Origin: Lama glama | Lineage: Eukaryota | Length of the DNA stretch: 64,000 nucleotides | Direction of reading: 5' to 3' | NCBI GenBank assembly: GCA_028534125.1 | Contig: CM052816.1 | Location: forward strand, 27,282,001-27,346,000 | Shown: piece after piece, positions 7,177 to 42,560 of the stretch | Layout: every line of letters begins with the position of its first letter | How positions within the stretch are numbered: the stretch's first letter is position 1 | Made by a program: the position numbers and the translations under genes | The notes under the pieces: model-generated | The model's database searches: none | Told to the model about the DNA's origin: nothing | What the model saw: only the letters and a program-made list of their open reading frames with translations

Positions 7177-7249
7177 CTGATCTGTCTTCATTTTGTGAAT
7201 CACATCTTCGGCACAGTTCCGGGATGGTCTTGAGTGATGTGACTGAATA
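7177..7249 (-). CDS. SNCAIP: Synphilin-1, second coding exon (YSVTSLKTIPELCRRCDSQNEDRS + 1 nt; 73 nt, phase 0 to 1)
   Basis: Continues the previous exon in frame and matches the synphilin-1 sequence. Acceptor is TTCCTATTCAG| and donor is CAG|GTATGT. Confidence 0.97.
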
Positions 7250-7475
7250 CTGAATAGGAAGTCAGAGGAGAGAGAGCATAAAATTTAAAATAAGAGTATT
7301 ACATTGGCTCAAACTGGCTAGAAAATCAAAACACAAGAAGTGATACTTGAGTACAACACGTATATCTAGAAAGTCTATCTAATTTTACCCTAAACGGGCT
7401 GCTGGATGATCTGGCAGCATCCCAAACTCTACCTACAAGCATGTCAGTAGATGCACATTAAAAAGAGGGCTGCAC

Positions 7476-11389: not shown

Positions 11390-11489
11390 NNNNNNNNNNN
11401 NNNNNNNNNNNNNNNNNNNNNNNNNNNNNNNNNNNNNNNNNNNNNNNNNNNNNNNNNNNNNNNNNNNNNNNNNNNNNNNNNNNNNNNNN
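11390..11489. other. Assembly gap (100 N)
   Basis: Run of exactly 100 N. Confidence 1.
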
Positions 11490-11859: not shown

Positions 11860-12050
11860 ATAAAGAACAATGGATGTGGAGCCAGAAGCTCTGGATTCCA
11901 GTCCTCGTTCTGACATTTCTTAACTCTGTAGTTCTGGACAAATAAATCATTTCCTATCTCTGGGACTCAGTTTCTTTATAAAACACAGATAATCATAGGA
12001 GATAATGTAAGTGAAGTCAGTTTGCAAGCTGTGAAATGATGTTAAATGTT
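11860..12050 (+). mobile_element. MIR SINE
   Basis: Degenerate MIR core 'tggagccaga...ctctgggactcagtttc'. Confidence 0.65.
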
Positions 12051-12829
12051 TTGGTCTCTTCGCTCTAACACATTGTCCGTGTGTACTACAGCTCTTCCTT
12101 TGTCTTCCTTCCTCTCATGATGTCAAGCTCAGTAGATCAAAACGTGAGAATGGATGAGGCAGGAAGAGGGGGGGCCAAGTCTGGACTGGGAAGGAAAGGA
12201 GGGACAGCCCAGCCTGTCTTAGCACATTATTTGGCTTCTCTGGTCTTTCTTCATCCAAGAGAGCCCATGGCCAAGAACAGACACTGAAACTTAACTTCAC
12301 AAACCACATAGAGTTGCTATGACATAAGACAATCCTACACATCCCCGGCTTACGCCAGTCAACGTTGTCACTCTGCCATGCAAAACAGTTTGAGCACGCA
12401 TGGGATTCATAACAACATAGTGTGATCCTCACACTGGGCTTTGGGGATCTCTGACCACCCTACATACTGCTCAGGACTGAAAAGCTTTGGCCCTTACCCC
12501 TGAGAACTGGAGCCAATTGGGTGAACAAGCAGACATTACTCAAATGGCCACGAGCCACAGAGAGTGAAAGAACTAAAATCCCAAGTACCTTTTCAGGCTA
12601 GAGACTGTTAAACAACTAAGGTCCCATTAAGTTTCCAAAAGAAACAATCAAGCAAGTCATCCAAACAACTATCCTGAAATTCATGATTTCTCACATAGCT
12701 CTCCAAAATTCCAGCAGGCATCTCAACAGTCACGCAATAAAATGGCAAAAATGTGAACACGCAAAGCTGGTAGTGAAAGCAAAAACACACAGCTGAAGTG
12801 AGATTTCTCAGAAACACAGTATTTTTTTT

Positions 12830-13600
12830 TTAAAACTATGACCTCCTCTCCAATGGCCTGACCTTCCAATTCAGGAAGCGTCCTGACTTCACACCCTCCC
12901 CAAGAGATCGCGCTATTTGCCCTTCTCTGGGGATGTGGTACTGACGACTCACCCCTTCAGCACTAGCCCTCTGCTTGTGCTCAGATCTCCTCCTCTCCCA
13001 TCTCCCCAGACTCATGCTCTACCATCACCCCCTCCTCTCTCCTCTTCAGCTACTCTCTCAACATCAAATCTCTCCTCGGATCCTATAAAATGAAACAAAC
13101 ATCCCTGCTGCCTCCTCTATTGGCCACAGGTGGACTTTCCTGCTCTTGGGTTCACAGCTATCTTTGTTGAAAGAATTGCCTTGGTTCCTGTCTCAACTTC
13201 CTCACCTCTGCATTCACTCCTCCAGCCACGACCACATGGCTTCTGTGCCATCACCTGCAGGCTCTGCTCTCACTGTGGCCACCAATGAGCCTTAACCAGG
13301 AAACCCAGTGGCATTTTTCAAACCTTTCCTTTCTAATGACCTATTTCCCACTATCGATCACTTCCTTCTTTACAATCTTTAAATCATCCCTCCCCCTCTT
13401 TTTATCTCCCTTGGTTTTCCTCCTATATCTCTGAAAACTTCTTTCCTATCTCTTTAGTAGAAGCCTCTTTTTCTTTCTACTGCATGGGACACACTTCGGC
13501 ACATTTCCTTCCTCGGAACATTCTTCCCTTTCCACATTCCATGTTTCACAGGTGACTTCACTGACTCCCATAGCTCCAAATACCACCTCTACATAGGGCA
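12830..13600 (+). mobile_element. L2 internal fragment
   Basis: Pyrimidine-rich L2 ORF2 remnant ('cctcacctctgcattcactcctc...caccaatga...tcacttccttctt'). Confidence 0.65.
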
Positions 13601-14059
13601 GACATTGGTGATCTAGATTTTCATATATCTATCCCAGCGTGATCTAAATGTATTTTTTCCCCACCATTCAGTCTCTATTAAAGGAAAGTATTGTAAATAA
13701 TCCTATTTTCAAATGTATTTGATTTTTGCTCTTATTCCTAGGTTTTATCCTATGTTCCAAGAGGTACTTAAAAATCAATAATCAAATTCTTCTATGCTAA
13801 AGCATTGCTTGTGGTTGATACTTGGGAAAATTTAGTAATTCTTTCTGACCATATTAAAATATACCAGGAACAACTCTATTCTAACGCTAATACCTGTAAT
13901 CAGGCAAAAGACAAAGACCCACATTGGGGCCTAACGGTGATGAGAGCACAGCATTGAATGACCCCCTTCTACTGTGAGAAGCGGTCATAGATGGGAAAAG
14001 ATGTGGTGAATGAGGGTGCCCAGAGGTGACCAAGGGGCTGAGCAGAAGTCATTTTCAAT

Positions 14060-14300
14060 GCAGTGGTTACATACATGGATTCCAGGACTACTGCACATGT
14101 TATATCTTGGCTTCGCCATTTTCTAGCTAATTAATCTTAGTTACTTAATCTGTGTATCATCATTTTCTTCATCTGTAAAACAGGGGCTAGTGGAATCTGC
14201 ATCAGAATATGGCTGTGAGGATTATGAGCTAATAATGTACAACATCAGGCATAGTGTCCAATGCCTAGTATGTGTTCAATAAATGTTAGCTATTATTGCT
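14060..14300 (+). mobile_element. MIR SINE
   Basis: 'ttcttcatctgtaaaacagggg...tcaataaatgttagctattatt'. Confidence 0.8.
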
Positions 14301-15984
14301 ACTGTTTACATTTAAAAGTATGAAAAATGAGGATTTAAAGTGAAGCCAAAATACTGGTAACTACTGAGGCAAAAATTACAGATGACAAAAGATTTAGAAA
14401 AGAAAATTATCTTGCAGTAGGGCAGATGGCTGGCTGTAAACTGTTTGACTTCAGTGATTGTCTACTTTTAACTGTGAGCCAATAATTAATCCTCACCAAA
14501 ATAAAAAGGCTGCCAAGAATGGAATTTGATATGGTAATTAAATGTGACCCACCATGAAGTTAACCTGATATTTCATATGCTCAGTTGTTATCATAAGGTA
14601 TTCAAGTCTGTGGCATTCATGTGCAGACGCAGAACCAGGACTGGGGCACTGTAGATATTTAATATATGTTTGTTGAGTAGAATGACACAAAATCTAGCTT
14701 GTTCATAAATGGTAAATAGTGTATGCATAACCTGCCTAGTCAATCTCATAAATGTTATAACTATCAGGCAAGATGAGCATTGAGGGCTATCTGCAGGGTA
14801 AGAGAAGAGGAAATACAAAAATGTGGCAGTTGCTAAATTCTTCTTGGAAATCACTCTATTCATAAGGTTGCTCTCTACCTTCTCAGGGAGAGATGTCAGT
14901 CAGGTCCAAGATTTGAAGTCCAGGGACCTGGGTTCTAGATCTGTACTCTAACAGTAGTTATGGAATGTGAATTTACAATTTATTGTGTCTGGAAGAGATT
15001 ATTCCTAATTCCTATCCCGGTGGGTATTAAGAAAACAAGATAACACAAATAGGATGTTAGAACAAGTGTAACGTTTTGGATGATGGGGAGCTGGAGAAGG
15101 GATGAATGAGAGGTGATTTAGACATGAATACAAGACACTGAAAAAGGAATACTGCAAAAAGTTGGGGCATTCTGAACAGCTGATGAAACTAGATCATACT
15201 GAGAAGCACTAAGGAAAGTTTAAATAGAGGTTAAGAGCAGGGCGATTGCTCAGAAGGGCAGGGCTGAGAGACAGGGACAGCGAAGAAGGGACTGAGGCGA
15301 TAAGAGCCCACCTGAACATCTTGGTCACATTCTAGGAAGCACAGAGGAAAGTATAATAGGGTCTCAGACGGATTCCTTGCTAGAAAGGAGGGGCAAGACA
15401 GGTTCTTTGTACCTTCAGTATCTTTCCAGCCTTTCTCGCACCTAAAACTGGAACACAAGCTGGATTCTTTCCCGCCCAACTCAGCACCTGAACCCTCTGA
15501 TAAGCTCTACAAGCCCGTTCTCAAGCCCTCCCACTGCTGTGAAGTGGCCCATGGTCAGAACGTAATGAAATCCAGGAAGCGTCAGTGGGGTGAGCTGAGT
15601 AAAACGGGGTGCACACAAAACAGAGGGTAGCAGGTATTTTACTGCAAGCAATGCCCAGTCTGTGGGAAGGAAAAATACGAAGACTCACTCAGAGTGAGAT
15701 TTACTTGCCATAAGAATTTGTTTTTCTACCAGACAGTGGTTTAAGCATCTTAGGAAAATGAACACACATAGTTCTGTGCTATTACTCAGGGTTGCAGGAC
15801 TTGGGTCAAAGGGGAGAGTAAAGTGGAAGGATATTTAGTATCTTGATCTCATTTGACTTGCACAAAAAATAGGCTATGCAATTACAAAAAGTGTCAACTT
15901 TCATGAAAGTTGCGGTCATGGTGATACAGAAAGGCAGTAACACTTCTTGTGCTGAGGAATAGCATATTGCGCTGAATTCTACTT

Positions 15985-16150
15985 ATGTGTGTGCACATAT
16001 GTGTGTGTGTATCTACATGTCCATGTCTATGTATATATGCACATGTAGGTGTGTGTATACATATGTGCATATACATAAACGTGCATTTATGTTTGTATAT
16101 AAATATGAGGGTGTGTGTTTACATATATACATATATAAATTTTCATATAT
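15985..16150. repeat. Degenerate (TG/TA)n low-complexity tract
   Basis: Alternating purine-pyrimidine run; the source of several spurious ORFs. Confidence 0.9.
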
Positions 16151-20127: not shown

Positions 20128-20184
20128 AGAGATGTCATCACTGAAGTCTATTTCATCCAAATCAAGGTATTCAGGGGCTTCCAT
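20128..20184 (-). CDS. SNCAIP: Synphilin-1, first coding exon (MEAPEYLDLDEIDFSDDIS, 19 codons, phase-0 donor)
   Basis: The reverse complement translates to the known synphilin-1 N-terminus. ATG is at 20184 and the GTAAGTA donor at 20127-20121. Confidence 0.97.
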
Positions 20185-26200: not shown

Positions 26201-26882
26201 GTCTGCTCTAGCTCTGGGGGAGGAGAGCTGTGTTTCCTGCTTGAAGGCTCACAAACATTTGTGAAGCAAAACTTCACACCATGGGCAATGTCTGGGAACT
26301 TTTACATATACTCTGTCACGTTTCACAAAGACCATGGGAGACAAATATCTTTATAATCTCCTTGGTGCAAATAAGGAGACCAAAGCTCAGAGAGGTTCTG
26401 CAACTGCCTAACACACAGCCAGAGTTTCTGATGATAAGTTTGCTTTTCTCCCTTATTTCAGCTTGCCAGAACTGCAGTGGTCAAGTAACACCTCACCTGT
26501 ATCAAACATTTTATTTTTTTCAAATCACCCCCAATACTTTTTATCTGAGTTTATTTATGACAACTCTGTGAAGGAGGCAGAGGGTGTGTATTGCAATTTG
26601 CAATCACATTCTTCCTATTTTACTGATGGTAAAACTCAGGAATGTTTTGGCCAATGTTATGTACTACTAAACAGGTGCAAAGCCAGCTCAGACAAACCAC
26701 TTCCCAATAATAAGTCCAGAGCTCTTCTGATTTGCCCCCTGGACTGTTCAGAAGCATGGGCAGCTCTTTGAACCATCTAGGTCAGAATTCCAAATGTATC
26801 TTCAGCCCTGAACTGTATCCCTTTGGGTGTCCAAGAAGTACAACTCCAAACAAATTGCTCTTTCCTCTCTCCAGCAGAGTCT

Positions 26883-27545
26883 CAATAGAATGGTATATGA
26901 TCCAGCAATCCCACTCCTGGGCATATATCTGAAGGGAACTTTAATTCGAAAAGATATATCCACCCCAGTGTTCACAGCAGCACTATTTACAACAGCCAAA
27001 GACATGGGAACAACCTTAATGTCCATCAATGATGATTGGATAAAGAAGTTGTGGTATATTTATACAATGGAATACTATTCAACCATAAAAAAGAATAAAA
27101 TACTGCCATTTGCAGCAACATGGACGGACCTCGAGACTGTCAGTCTAAGTGAAGTAAGCCAGAAAGAGAAAGACAAATATCATATGATATCACTTATATG
27201 TGGAATCTAAAAAAAAAGACAAATGAACTTATTTACAAAACAGAAACAGATTCACAGACATAGAAAACAAACTTATGGTTACTTGGGGGGAAGGGGATAG
27301 GAAGGGATAAATTGGGAGTTCGACATTTGCAGATACCAACTACTACATATAAAATAGATAAACAACAAGTGTATACTGTATAGTATACACTATATTCAGT
27401 ATCTTGCTGAGAATGAAATGAAAAAGAATGAAATGAAAAAGAATATGAAAATGAATGTATGTTATGTATATGCATGACTGAACTATTATGCTGTACACAA
27501 GAAACTGACACATTGTAAATTGATTATACTTCAATAAAAATAAAC
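26883..27545 (+). mobile_element. 5'-truncated L1 (ORF2 C-terminus, 3'UTR, A-tail)
   Basis: ORF 26827-27210 encodes 'YDPAIPLLGIY...WIKKLWYIYTMEYYS...SLICG', the L1 ORF2 C-terminus. Confidence 0.95.
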
Positions 27546-29378: not shown

Positions 29379-29589
29379 CCTAAGACCAACGGCTGGTCCC
29401 AGCCCTGGCTACATCTGCATTTAATTAAAAGATGGTGATCTCTTTCCCACATCCCCCATCTCCACAGATGTTAACTTCATTATACAGGATCCATGCCTAG
29501 TGCCCTTCTGATTAAACTTCCTCAGTTGACTCCAATAAGCATTTCCCATGAAGACCACCCAGAAACCTCAGAAGGTCTTAAGTCTATGC

Positions 29590-29631
29590 ATGTGTGTGTG
29601 TGTGTGCGTGTGCGTGTGTGTGTGTGTGTGT
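29590..29631. repeat. (TG)n microsatellite with CG interruptions
   Basis: Direct reading. Confidence 0.95.
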
Positions 29632-30067
29632 ACTTTAATTCCCACACTATACAAGGGACAGACGTTGGCCTACCAAACCTTAAAAATTTGGGCCTTGGTT
29701 ACTTTAAAATTTCCTTTCTCTGTAGCACTTCATGGCAACAAAGATGTTCTAAGTTCCTCCTGTTAATGAGATCCAGGTTTATAATTTTAGAGGCTTTTTC
29801 AGATCAAGAATCTCGAGTTAGGGATATCCATTCACTAGAACTATGGTATAATAAATCCCACGTCTACCAATAAAAAAGGAAAATAAAAAATGCAAGAATT
29901 GAATAAGAATTAGCTTAAAATTCAATGCTTACACATCATGTATGCATCATAAGATATTTAAAATTATTACTCATTGAATCTGAAGCAGTCCAAATGGCTA
30001 CACTGACTAACTGTAAAAAATAAAATCCTAGTCATGTATTTTAAATTATAATTATAATGTGCTTATT

Positions 30068-30930: not shown

Positions 30931-31932
30931 TTAAGCGTATGGAGAAACAACACCATTTGCAGGCTGTGGTGTGGGTTTTTTCTCTTGGGCACCACAGAAG
31001 GACACCAACTTCATTTTGTAATTTACCAGCATAAGCAGAAAAGGACTGAGAGCAGAGAAGCCTGAAGAGAGGGCTGTGAGAACAGCTGGAAAAAAGACAC
31101 AGGCTGCCAAGTCCTTCAAGAAATAGACTAAGATAAAGTGAGAAATCCAGAGTGGAGTGATCAGCCACATTAATAAAATACTGAACTTGGCTCCTCTAAG
31201 GATTTCAGTTTCTGAATCATCATCTCCAATCCAGATGTCACCATATGTCATCTTCTTTCTTTCCAAAAGGAGAAAAGACATCCAGAAACAGACAAAGACT
31301 AAGATGGATAAAGGAAGAATATCGATCAGAACTAAAAACGTTTTCCCATAGTAAAACTCTACTTGCTTGTTTCCAAAGTCAATTAGGCAGTCTGTGTGAA
31401 TCCTGCTAGTAGACAAGGGGTCTGTATCATTTCCTGCATGCAGGTATTCAGATTTTCTAGCATAAAGCAATACAGGGATGTACACTGCCACTCCAGCCAT
31501 CCAAAGTGCAGAAACCACCTTCAAGGGATGCTCCTGACAGTCCGGGTTTGGAGTCTCACTCAAGGGGTGGACGGTCTGGTAAAGCCTCCGGAGGTAGAGC
31601 AATGCAAAGTGTAACATGAACCAGATGGCCAGGGACGTCGTCAGGGCCTCTGTGAAGCACAGAACTTTGCAGCCGGCCGAATCCAATATGAAACCAGAAG
31701 AATAAACAATTTTCATGACATTCACCACCGAGTTTTTAATGAGGTGGACGGATCCAAGATTGAAAATTAGAAGAAAGGATGTCTGTAAACGCCCAGTGAT
31801 ACATTTCCTTGTAGAGTAAAATAAACAAATGTTTCCAACAAAGCTCACAAGGATTAGAGGGGTGCAAGCGATGATCTCAAGAACATCCGTGGATGGCTTC
31901 ATGGTAAACGGCAAGTCCGTGAGCTCAAGCAT
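30931..31932 (-). CDS. ancV1R: Intronless vomeronasal type-1 (V1R/ORA-family) 7-TM GPCR, ancV1R; 333 aa from the first ATG or 323 aa from the second ATG at 31902
   Basis: The only long ORF in the window, with seven hydrophobic segments. Motifs: TM1 'VSFVGN', TM2 'LLIFNLGSVHL', TM3 'GCKV...SLAIW', ECL2 Cys and NDT sequon, TM5 'IDILP', TM6 'E..RGAK', TM7 'FSALSPF'. ancV1R is known to lie in an SNCAIP intron. The ORF-track start at 31944 is a GTG. Confidence 0.93.
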   Translation of the reverse strand: MLELTDLPFTMKPSTDVLEIIACTPLILVSFVGNICLFYSTRKCITGRLQTSFLLIFNLGSVHLIKNSVVNVMKIVYSSGFILDSAGCKVLCFTEALTTSLAIWFMLHFALLYLRRLYQTVHPLSETPNPDCQEHPLKVVSALWMAGVAVYIPVLLYARKSEYLHAGNDTDPLSTSRIHTDCLIDFGNKQVEFYYGKTFLVLIDILPLSILVFVCFWMSFLLLERKKMTYGDIWIGDDDSETEILRGAKFSILLMWLITPLWISHFILVYFLKDLAACVFFPAVLTALSSGFSALSPFLLMLVNYKMKLVSFCGAQEKKPTPQPANGVVSPYA

Positions 31933-32136
31933 CGTCTGCTTCACTTTGAGTCATCAGGCATTTGGAAAACTTTTATGAAGTCTTTAGCAAAGAAGACCTG
32001 GGTTTTCCTAATCCACTATGTTGACACAATCATCAACTGGTGTCACCATAACAGGTCAGAGATGGTCTATAACAGAATTCTGCTTGCTCGAGTGCTGAGC
32101 TGCTGAAAACAAAACAGCTTCTCAAAAGGGTTCTGC

Positions 32137-32197: not shown

Positions 32198-32939
32198 AGT
32201 TCTCAGAAATGTATTTATAACACTGTAATGTAATTTCCTAGATGCAGCGTGATACAATTTTCCACAGTCATGAGGGAGAGAATAAAATTAAATTTGTGAC
32301 AGCAAAGGACACGTGGTCAGAGGTTGAAATGACTCTCTCCACTCATGAAAAAAATTAAAGCGAGAGTGTATGAACAACAATGAGGATTTCCAAACAACAA
32401 AATGACATATTACCAATGACATTAATAACATGATAGAGGTTTATGAAGTAGAGCAGTTTTCTAATTTCTCTACTATTTTTGCAAAGCAGGAATACTGTTA
32501 CCTGTTCTGATGATCTCTTGGGGTTGTTGGGATTACAAAAGAGATGGTAGAAAATATTTCTGCGGCCATAGGGGAGGGAATAAAGAAGAGAGGGAGGGAG
32601 GAAGGAAGGAAGGAAAGGAAAAGGGAAAGGAGGAAGACATTTTTATAAACATGGGCATTATGTCCATGACCAAATCTCTAACTTCCTGGTTAAATACACA
32701 GTCTGACAACTGGGATGTCATTAGGGAGACACTCCCTACCCCTCCCTTCCATCCCCCACCTCCACCTCCACCGCCGAGTCAGCACATGAGGCTAGTAAAA
32801 GATTTCTGTCCTAAGTATGGTTGGAGAGTGCAGAGCAAGGACAGAAAGATGGGAACAGACTATTTTCCCTCTATTTGCTTCTAAGTTTTGCTGTCAATCG
32901 TCCTGTTCTACACTGTCACACATATGCTTCACTCTGACC

Positions 32940-38550: not shown

Positions 38551-38919
38551 AAAATCAATCCTCTGAGGCTACACAACTGACCAAGTGACTTAAAACATAA
38601 TGATGGCCTTGACACTCTGCTACTGAAAACACTTCAGTGTCTTTCCACAGCTTTTAGGGCAGACGGCCAGTTCCTCCTCCAGCCACAGGAAGCCACTCAC
38701 GTGGAGTACCTCCCTCCTGCTCAGCTCCTGCCAACCTCAGACTCACAATGCAAACTTAAACGACACTGATGGGCATGCTGTGAACACCCCATTATGTTCC
38801 CTGTCCTGAGTTTTGGCTTATGTTGATGTCTCTGTGTACATCTCTTTTCTTTCTTGACCCAAACCATCGAGAACCCCGCCCTTGACTTTTCATTTGCCAA
38901 TGAGTGGTGTGATCATTTG

Positions 38920-39455
38920 CCTATTTACTCTCAGATCCATTCTCTCAGGTAACTGTATTTCCTCAGTGTCTTTGTCAGCTGACTGGCTCCTGGCAGGTCT
39001 CGCTAAGGGAAGATTCGGGCAGAAGATTAGAGCGCAGGTCTCTCTCTCTCTATCTCTGTCTCATATTCTCTATCTCTCTGTCTGTCTGTCTGTCTGTCTC
39101 TCTCACTCACACACACGCGCGCGCACACACACACACCCCTCTGCCCTGCTACAGGCAGTGCCTCCTGCATGTCATCAGCTCCCACAAGGCAGCATCAACA
39201 GCATCATTCTCATCATTCTTGACTGTGCTGGACTAAGGCCCTAATTTGCAGGTGGTAATGGATCTCTTTCCTTTATCCTCTCAGCCCTAGGGGTGGTGGT
39301 GGCTCCCCTGCTTTTGCTCATCTCAGGATTGCGTTATCCTGCTTAGTGTGGGGTCTCAGCTCTTCCAGGACCACAGGAACTAATACCCTAATTTCCCTCT
39401 GTCTGAAATATCTAGAGTGGCTTCTGCTTATTCTGACTTGGCCCGACTAGTTCAC
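38920..39455 (+). mobile_element. ERVL solo LTR (LTR33-like) containing a (TC)/(CA) microsatellite
   Basis: 'cagccctaggggtggtggtggctcccctgc...aatttccctctgtctgaaatatctagagtggcttctg' resembles the LTR33 3' end. Confidence 0.65.
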
Positions 39456-39772: not shown

Positions 39773-40269
39773 AAGCAGGGGAACCAAACAGGGATTTGTT
39801 ATAAGAAGCAAACTTCAGCTAAGCCACAAAAGGTCTCCAAAATCTTCTGCACCAGTACTATAGAAAGTCTTACCACAAAACAAATCATAGTTCAACACAT
39901 TAAAATAAATATGGGGCATACTGCATTTGGGGGAAGGGCATGTATCATAAAATCAAAGTCGTAACTCCAAAAAATTTAGGGCTCATGGTTCCAAAAAGTC
40001 CAGACAGGGAATTGGGGAAAGTAAGAAAAAGATGGACAATTGACAACAGTGAACACCCCAAACAAGCCTGACCAAGGTTCGGGATGGGCAACAAAGCAGG
40101 TGGGAATCAAAGGGGAAAGAGCCGCCACCAGTACAAACGACAGGTTCTTCTGAGCTTCGTTTCATGTTCAGACTCCAGCCTCACCCAAATGTCTTGCGCG
40201 TGCCTCTTTTTACTACTATTCTCCTCTGTTTCCTTTCATTGGAGAAAACCATTGGCGGCTACTATTTTA

Positions 40270-42560
40270 AAAATTATTGAATAAAAGGAAACTTCCTCAA
40301 TTAAATAAAGACTATTTACAAAACCTTATAGCTAATACCGTAATAGTGAGAAACCCAAAGTTTCCCACTAAGGTCAGGAACAAGGCAAGGGCGTTCGCTC
40401 TCACTGCTCATTTGCAGCACTGGACTGGAAGTCCTAGATGATGCCATCAGACAAAAGGAAATAAAAGTATATATACCAGGAAAGAAGAAATAAAACTGTC
40501 TTTGTTTGCAGAGGACATGATCGTCTATTCAGCAAATCTGAAAGAATCGACAAAAAAACTCCTGGAACCAGTAAGTGATTACAGCAAAGTTGTCAGGCTA
40601 CAAGGTTAATATACAAAGATCAACTGCTTTCCTATATACCAGCAAATAACAAGTGGAGTTTGATATTAAAAACACATGATTTACATTAATACTCCAAAAA
40701 ATGAAATGCTTAGTTAGAACTCTAATAAAATATGTATAATATCTATATGAGGAAAACTATAAAACTCAGATGAATTAAACTAAGGAAGAACTAGATCAAT
40801 AGAAAGAGACTTCATTTTTATGGATAGGAAGACTCCATATTGCCAAGACATCTGTTCTTTTCAACTTGAAAACAAAGTCCCAACAAGTTATTTTGTGGAT
40901 ACTGATAAAATGAGTCTAAAATTTATATGAAAAGGCTGGAGGTACAAAGGCAAAAGAATAGCCAACACAATATTCAAAAGAATAACAAAGCAGGAGGACT
41001 ACCTGACACTTACTATAAAGCTAAACTAATCAAGACAGTGGAGTACTGGTGAAAGAACAGATAAATAGATCAATGGAACAGAACAGGGAGCACAGAACCA
41101 GACCCACATAAATTAAGTCAATTGATATTTGACAAAGGAGCAAAGGCAACAATACAATGCAGCAGAGTCTTTTCAACAAATGGTGCTAGAACAACTGGAC
41201 ATCTACATGCCAAAAAAAGAATCCTGATGCACACTGTACACCCTTCATAAAAAGTAACTCAAAATTGAACACAAATCTAAATGTAAAATACAAAACTATA
41301 AAACTCCTAGAAGATAACATATGGGAATCCTAGAAACCCTTGGGTATGGTGATGACTTTTTAGCTAACACCAAAGGCACAATCGTGAAAGAAAACATTGA
41401 TGATAAGCTGGATTTCATTAAAATCAAAAACTTCTACTCTGTGAAAAACAATGTCAAAAGGTAGGCCAGAGATGGAGAAAATGTTTGTGAAAGATACATC
41501 TAATAAAGAACTATGATCCAAAACATACAAAGAACTTTTAAAACTCAACAATAAAAAAGTGAACAACTAATTTTAAAATAGACCGCAGATCTTAACAGAC
41601 ACCTCCCCAAATAAGAAATACAGATGGCAAAGAAGCATATGAAAAGATGCTCCATATCATATGTTATGAGAGAACTAGAACAATAATAAGATGCCACTAC
41701 CTATCTATTAGAATGACCAAAATACAGAACACTGAGAAATGCTGACAGAAATGTGGAGTAAAAGGAACTTTCATTCATTGCCAGTGGGAATGCAAAATCA
41801 GCCATATTGGAAGATAGTTTGAAGTTTCTTACAGAACTAAACATACAGTTACCATGCCATCCAGCAATTGTGCTCCTGGGTATTCACCCAAAGGAGCTGA
41901 AGACTTAGGTCCACATGAAAATCTGCACAGGGATGTTCACAGCAGCTTTATTCATAACTGCCTAAACTTGGAAGCAATGAAGATGACCTTCAGTAGGTAA
42001 ATGGATAAATAAGCTGGAGTACATCTAGATAATGGAATATAATTCAGCACTAAAAAGAAATGAGCTATAAAGCCATCAAAAGACATGGAGGAACCTTAAA
42101 GGCATATTACTAAGTGAAATAAACCAATCTGAAAAAGCTTCATACTGTCTGATTCCAACTAAATGACATTCTGGAAAAGGCAGAACCATGGAAAGCTTAA
42201 AATGATCAGTGGTTGCCAAGAGTCTGGAGGCGGGGGGAGAGGGATGAACAGGCAGAACACAGAGGATTTACAGGGCCGTGAAAATACTCTGTATGATACC
42301 ATTATGTTGGATACATGTCATTATACATTTGTCCAAAACCATAAACTACAACACTAAGAGGGAACCCTAAAGTAAACTACGAACTTTGAGTGATAATGAT
42401 GTGTCAATGGAGTCCATCAATTGTAACAAATGTCCCGCTCTGGTGAGGGATGCTGATAATGGGGAAGGCTGTGCATGTGTTGGGGCAGGGAGTGTATAGG
42501 AAATCCCTATACTTTCCTCTCAATGTTGCCGTGAACCTAAAACTTCTCTAAAAAAAATTA
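40270..42560 (+). mobile_element. Old L1 (L1MC1-like), degenerate ORF2 3' half plus 3'UTR
   Basis: RT region 'tctttgtttgcagaggacatgatcgtcta' (FADD-like), 'ttcaacaaatggtgct', and an L1MC-type 3'UTR; many stops. Confidence 0.95.

Follow-up and report, generated by a model that had tools for sequence, protein, structure and literature searches.

The stretch of llama (Lama glama) DNA analyzed here, referred to as the window, is 64 kb long (C1:27282001-27346000 of a 2.35-Gb assembly), and positions are given in the numbering of the whole window. Its minus strand very probably carries, at 30931-31902, an intact and most likely functional South American camelid ortholog of ancV1R, the gene for the ancient vomeronasal 1 receptor. 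This ortholog is a single-exon, single-copy gene upstream of the first coding exon of SNCAIP, which encodes synphilin-1. The camelid copy is a known gene, and because the ancV1Rs of alpaca and camels are already listed as intact (Bactrian, wild Bactrian and Arabian camel and alpaca in Table S1 of Zhang & Nikaido 2020, PMC7290294), its identification is correct but ordinary. The only new element is a modest speed-up of protein change along the llama-alpaca lineage, with weak statistical support.

The original prediction for this DNA had described an uninterrupted open reading frame (ORF) of 333 codons, and such a frame was found exactly at 30931..31932 on the minus strand. From stop to stop, the frame around it spans 339 codons; of the 15 window frames that reach at least 120 amino acids, the second longest has 175. 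At the base composition of the window, 339 codons would stay open by chance with a probability of about 2e-10; this value and the frame length rule out a chance ORF. The conserved start is the second in-frame ATG (31902), as methionine occupies the column of ORF codon 11 in 62 of 62 aligned mammalian sequences. The N-terminal extension formed by the first ten ORF codons is present in 10 of these 62 sequences, four of them camelid. Counted from the second ATG, the coding sequence (CDS) has the length of 972 bp that is reported for most intact ancV1Rs (PMC7290294). A tblastn search of the assembly with the protein covered residues 1-323 and met no internal stop. A TATAAA motif is located at 32219 on the minus strand, 287 bp upstream of the first ATG, and the highest CpG observed/expected ratio of the window (0.58) is found at 31501-32100, which comprises the 5' half of the ORF and the sequence immediately upstream of it.

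Homology searches and phylogeny identified the protein as ancV1R. A search of 5.8 billion clustered proteins returned 75 homologs, the best of which was a 333-amino-acid "uncharacterized protein" of the dromedary with 96% identity. A tarsier protein named "ancient vomeronasal 1 receptor" was among the 75 (78% identity), and entries of the same name from Xenopus and Anolis were also matched. A profile of 15 divergent members matched 95 proteins, all at E <= 1e-56, with none weaker up to the cut-off of 0.01. These matches extend to Xenopus, squamates, coelacanth, lungfish, bichir and gar, and their names and identity to the query suggest that all 95 are ancV1R orthologs, fragments or fusion models. 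Among 1.84 billion representatives searched exhaustively with phmmer, 13 proteins matched, namely 12 orthologs or fragments and, weakly, one louse G protein-coupled receptor (GPCR; E 5.7e-4); no V1R or T2R outgroup was among them. Identity between the window protein and the 49 other orthologs of alignment A1 ranges from 39 to 99%. Host-derived copies of the gene were also sought in metagenomes; none of the 210 pattern stretches matched there encodes a relative.

Outgroup sets for the phylogeny came from the same genome and consisted of 18 full-length V1R ORFs (30 loci fetched) and 12 T2R ORFs (20 loci fetched). In a FastTree analysis of 45 sequences, the 15 ancV1Rs, 18 V1Rs and 12 T2Rs formed three monophyletic groups. 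The window protein was placed in the ancV1R clade (15 of 15 members, support 1.0) together with the named Anolis and Xenopus entries, apart from the V1Rs and T2Rs of its own genome. Because the three groups are monophyletic, the protein does not lie inside the canonical V1Rs or another GPCR family, a grouping that the original prediction had named as an outcome that would contradict it. The predicted ancV1R identity was thus confirmed by the named homologs, by the clade support and by the nucleotide sequence, since the window CDS and the "Alpaca" ancV1R in the alignment of Zhang & Nikaido (PMC7290294), compared by eye, are identical except at 5 of 969 bases. The gene had also been described as single-copy, and the protein has one match in the assembly, out of five candidates scored.

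The predicted structure is that of a GPCR of the class-A type. An AlphaFold2 model based on 50 sequences (mean predicted local distance difference test score 71, predicted template modeling score 0.72) contains seven long helices at residues 5-34, 41-68, 75-111, 126-147, 179-218, 229-260 and 270-294. The seven helices of the original prediction are therefore recovered in the model, and a crude Kyte-Doolittle scan gives clear peaks for six of them, with transmembrane helix 2 (TM2) below the threshold, so that hydropathy alone does not yield a clean set of seven. Among the 50 orthologs, the window protein included, 31 columns are invariant, and all 31 are kept in the window protein. Two of these invariant residues, C78 at the top of TM3 and C172 in extracellular loop 2 (ECL2), form the TM3-ECL2 cysteine pair, which is a hallmark of class-A GPCRs. 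With the seven modeled helices, this pair is the basis for the fold assignment. Foldseek against PDB, in the best 50 matches listed, returned only GPCR structures, nearly all of them class-A receptors for peptides or lipids; their TM-scores were 0.44-0.75 (most 0.56-0.75), at E of about 1e-7 to 1e-6 and 12-20% identity. The best PDB match by sequence profile was neuropeptide FF receptor 2 (4e-5).

The family to which this receptor belongs was examined with sequence models. The original prediction had claimed V1R/ORA-type motifs, and this claim was not upheld. Pfam assigned the window protein to no family even at E <= 1, and the locus is in neither of the whole-genome scans made with the V1R model (PF03402, 123 matches) and the TAS2R model (PF05296, 35 matches). 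Among the 50 orthologs, Pfam matched 7tm_1 in 23, TAS2R in 14 and V1R in 3 (V1R at E <= 0.01). Only profile-profile comparison reveals a remote V1R likeness. In hhalign, ancV1R aligned with V1R at a probability of 95% (E 3.9e-8, 274 columns) and with T2R at 68.7% (E 4.6e-5, 270 columns), while V1R and T2R aligned with each other at 97.4% (E 1.6e-11, 288 columns). By this measure ancV1R is closer to V1R than to T2R, and the sister relation of the ancV1R clade to the V1Rs depends on midpoint rooting only. The canonical V1Rs of the genome cross-match the TAS2R model at E 1e-10 to 1e-5, which ancV1R does not.

It is highly improbable that the protein is a GPCR of another family, such as a peptide receptor, and that the vomeronasal label is wrong. 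The lack of a Pfam V1R match and the spread of the orthologs over three Pfam families would agree with such an origin, and so would the best sequence and fold matches in PDB, which are peptide receptors, the neighbors in the protein atlas, which are 7tm_1 clusters, and the pipeline names of orthologs (NPY-receptor-like, GPR176-like, bradykinin-receptor-like and T2R-like). However, the low identities noted above make the PDB matches weak, and hhalign prefers the V1Rs of this genome over its T2Rs. In addition, the ancV1R clade is sister to the V1Rs under midpoint rooting, and, in published in situ data, vomeronasal neurons show ancV1R along with TRPC2, Gi2 and Go.

The ancV1R reading is also clarified by comparison with the related receptor families. 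Canonical mammalian V1Rs resemble ancV1R in an intronless CDS of about 300-330 codons, in seven helices and in the remote profile similarity over 274 columns. They differ in that ancV1R is a single-copy gene outside clusters, whereas most matches of the V1R model on large contigs, among those listed, are on contig C12. On this contig, at about 0.7-13 Mb, canonical V1R matches occur in several groups in which intact and stop-bearing copies are interleaved. Furthermore, the V1R model fails on ancV1R, which is conserved one-to-one from bichir to mammals and is reported in all vomeronasal neurons, outside the one-receptor-per-neuron rule. T2Rs share the superfamily-level fold and size with ancV1R, and several amphibian orthologs carry a T2R label from pipelines in addition to the 14 TAS2R matches. 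They are distinguished from ancV1R by the weaker profile similarity, the separate clade and a TAS2R scan without this locus. The teleost V1R5/V1R6 (ORA5/ORA6) are given as the phylogenetically closest outgroups of ancV1R (PMC7290294), whereas ancV1R itself is reported to be lost in teleosts (PMC8822828).

The original prediction had placed the gene in an intron of SNCAIP, on the strand of the host and about 10.7 kb upstream of the first coding exon. The strand and the distance were confirmed: the SNCAIP exons (ATG at 20184, and 7252..7178) are both on the minus strand, like the ORF, and 10,747 bp separate the last base of the ORF from the ATG of coding exon 1. The features are listed in the table. 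The peptide MEAPEYLDLDEIDFSDDIS of the first coding exon is taken by us to be the N-terminus of synphilin-1. The next codon in frame reads V and hence begins with GT, as in a splice donor. In the second coding exon, all 25 residues (YSVTSLKTIPELCRRCDSQNEDRS and one further residue) match the synphilin part of the hamster model P0074. The intron between these two exons contains an assembly gap of 100 N at 11390-11489.

Features of the ancV1R-SNCAIP region, in window positions
Feature	Position	Strand	Description
Full ORF from first in-frame ATG	30931..31932	minus	333 codons and TAA stop, uninterrupted
Conserved ancV1R CDS from second ATG	30931..31902	minus	323 codons and stop, 972 bp, single exon, seven-helix GPCR
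SNCAIP first coding exon (presumed), coding part	20128..20184	minus	ATG at 20184, 19 codons, MEAPEYLDLDEIDFSDDIS, from six-frame scan
SNCAIP second coding exon	7178..7252	minus	25 codons, YSVTSLKTIPELCRRCDSQNEDRS and one further residue

No CpG island was found within the window. Beyond its upstream end, where the adjoining 100 kb were examined, a strong CpG island of 1.8 kb (GC 0.67, observed/expected 0.85) is located at C1:27373401-27375200, equivalent to window positions 91401-93200 and 59.5 kb upstream of the ORF. This island is a plausible candidate for the SNCAIP promoter. A second, weaker island of 500 bp at C1:27365501-27366000 is also a candidate for this promoter. The gene had been described as remote from any V1R cluster, and this is borne out by the closest PF03402 match on the same contig, which is about 26.5 Mb away.

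Alpaca and camels carry the same gene, with the same length, frame and host gene. In RefSeq it is represented by "uncharacterized protein" models of Vicugna pacos (P0078 and P0079), Camelus dromedarius (P0001 and P0077) and Camelus ferus (P0076). The window protein differs from the two alpaca models by 3 and 4 residues and from the camel models by 14, and the exact window protein was not found in a collection of 15 billion proteins. The animal is thus placed among the South American camelids, near the alpaca reference though distinct from it. Relative to the window, the alpaca models show K197N, V328G and Y332N (ORF codon numbering). The window keeps K197, which is present in 55 of 58 other mammals, and Y332, which is invariant in 57 of 57; residue 328 is V in the window, G in alpaca and I in camels. 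Both camels differ from the window and alpaca at 13 sites, about 10 of which show the mammalian majority residue in the camels.

These differences are distributed unequally between the two camelid groups. In a maximum-likelihood tree from a quick IQ-TREE run, the stem of the lamines is 0.051 substitutions per site long, compared with 0 and 0.004 for the camels. Tajima counts were 6-8 versus 0-2 in 12 tests of the window against camels and 7-10 versus 1-2 in 6 tests of alpaca against dromedary. The direction was identical in 18 of 18 tests, and P ranged from 0.008 to 0.29 depending on the outgroup; this spread makes the asymmetry a modest one. Nucleotide changes were counted by eye between the window codons and published sequences of Arabian camel, alpaca, pig, whale and perissodactyls. 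The window and the dromedary differ at 19 nucleotides, 14 of them nonsynonymous and 5 synonymous. When the outgroups were used to polarize the changes, the window lineage received 12 nonsynonymous and 4 synonymous ones and the dromedary lineage 2 and 1, respectively, with codon 198 ambiguous.

Several points weigh against the reading of the locus as a functional V1R-type gene strictly inside SNCAIP. The V1R label is a remote one, and since the Pfam V1R model misses the protein, membership leans mainly on the published phylogeny and on remote profile similarity. In addition, no SNCAIP 5' exon was located upstream, as would be needed for the gene to be strictly intronic. This part of the original claim therefore rests on the statement that all ancV1Rs are sited in SNCAIP intron 1 (PMC7290294) and on the candidate CpG island. 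Finally, the ratio of nonsynonymous to synonymous rates (omega) on the window lineage, with site counts computed from the window ORF, ranges from 0.89 to 1.21 when the transition bias is set between 1 and 4. This estimate comes from 16 substitutions and fits omega = 1. With so few substitutions, the intact frame is estimated to be weak evidence against neutral drift.

The original prediction had proposed a dN/dS check and held that a ratio near 1 would speak against it. The ratio obtained comes close to this value, and it is offset by the positions at which the protein has changed. Conservation of at least 90% among 58 other mammals applies to 44% of all sites, and none of the 12 replacements on the lineage falls on these (permutation P = 0.0009). 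At sites conserved to at least 95% (31% of 323), the window protein has no deviation, and the median of other mammals is 1. Seven of the 12 replacements are extracellular in the model, namely at the outer end of TM1, in ECL1, at the top of TM3, three in ECL2 and at the top of TM5. Since the replacements spare the conserved sites, the conserved core is still protected, and the extra change occurs at variable, mostly outward-facing positions.

The gene could also be intact by inertia, with purifying selection relaxed in South American camelids and the copy drifting toward a pseudogene, as is reported for some mammals with doubtful vomeronasal function (PMC7290294). Such drift would account for the omega near 1, for the long lamine stem with its uniform Tajima direction, and for the two further alpaca changes K197N and Y332N, the latter at an otherwise invariant residue. 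It is nonetheless unlikely, as the replacements avoid the conserved sites and two independent lamine assemblies, those of the window and of alpaca, both have an intact frame. Furthermore, the Tajima P values depend on the outgroup, and the background omega of ancV1R is already about 0.4 (PMC7290294), which the lineage exceeds only marginally (P = 0.12 to 0.04). The vomeronasal system of the group also argues against it, since the genome contains at least 18 V1R genes with full-length frames and the alpaca vomeronasal organ has mature receptor cells.

Adaptive retuning of the outward-facing surface, in which a functional receptor would have shifted its binding, is unlikely as well. An omega of about 1 or above beside a conserved core and the seven extracellular replacements would be expected from it. 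However, no part of the alignment varies more than the extracellular loops, so that the placement of these replacements may be of no significance, and the counts are too small for a branch-site test. For 8 of the 12 replacements, the residue is also seen in other mammals whose ancV1R is intact. As a rule, ancV1R evolves slowly and one-to-one. Taken more broadly, a lineage-specific shift of ancV1R in South American camelids, either a retuning of the "universal" vomeronasal receptor or a first stage of relaxation while the organ persists, is a tentative possibility. It is suggested by about 12 versus about 2 replacements since the split from camels, by the omega near 1, by the extracellular share of the replacements and by the alpaca change at the invariant C-terminal tyrosine.

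The original prediction had also stated that the gene is easily missed by annotation. In camelids it is not missed, as the RefSeq models of camels and alpaca show, and elsewhere it is misnamed rather than missed; pipelines call it "uncharacterized" or give it one of the receptor-like names mentioned above. Two models are chimeric. The hamster "Synphilin-1" (P0074, 578 amino acids) joins ancV1R residues 1-179 to SNCAIP from the second coding exon onward, and in the dog "60S ribosomal protein L10a" (P0065, 345 amino acids) an RPL10A-like N-terminus is followed by the last 200 residues of ancV1R. The two cases illustrate how pipelines mishandle the nested gene.

Four neighboring ORFs were compared with Pfam, and the sole match was PRIMA1 at E 0.0068, below its cut-off. 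A 132-amino-acid open frame at 26812-27210 on the plus strand, which had no Pfam match at E <= 0.01, presumably resembles a C-terminal fragment of LINE-1 ORF2. The plus-strand frames 29475-29873 and 38858-39244 encode alternating residues (VCVCV..., SLSLSL..., THTH...), which indicates dinucleotide microsatellites. AT skew is 0.26 at 40001-42000, and GC skew changes from -0.23 (12-14 kb) to a value of +0.17 (14-16 kb); such oddities at 40001-42000 and 12001-16000 are probably due to interspersed repeats.

The window copy of ancV1R is most likely functional, judging from its intact frame, from the retention of all residues that are invariant from lungfish to mammals and from changes that avoid conserved positions. 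Independent support for a working vomeronasal system comes from the canonical V1R genes of the genome, of which at least 18 have full-length frames (18 of the 30 fetched loci), and from histology, in which the vomeronasal sensory epithelium of the alpaca is described with OMP-positive receptor cells (PMC11144526). In mouse, amphibians, bichir, lungfish and gar, every vomeronasal sensory neuron is reported to express ancV1R, along with canonical V1Rs or V2Rs and with TRPC2, Gi2 and Go. By analogy with these species, camelid ancV1R would be driven by a promoter of its own within the host gene and would encode a predicted seven-helix GPCR of 323 residues, or 333 from the upstream ATG. The receptor would be expressed in vomeronasal sensory neurons beside one canonical V1R or V2R per cell and would act in the Gi2/Go-TRPC2 signaling pathway, where it may serve as a common co-receptor or partner or as a broadly tuned receptor. 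The whale ancV1R in the published alignment (PMC7290294 supplement) contains in-frame stops and frame-breaking gaps, and the blue whale model P0056 (236 amino acids) is truncated at its N-terminus; both fit the reported loss of ancV1R in cetaceans.

The practical value of these results lies in annotation, since the gene is misnamed and sometimes fused to synphilin-1 or RPL10A-like sequence. For research on vomeronasal evolution, the possibly faster protein change in the llama group offers a minor lead and is no surprise for the field. In mammals, ancV1R is used as a genetic marker of a working vomeronasal organ, and the intact camelid copy agrees with the published status of the gene in alpaca and camels.

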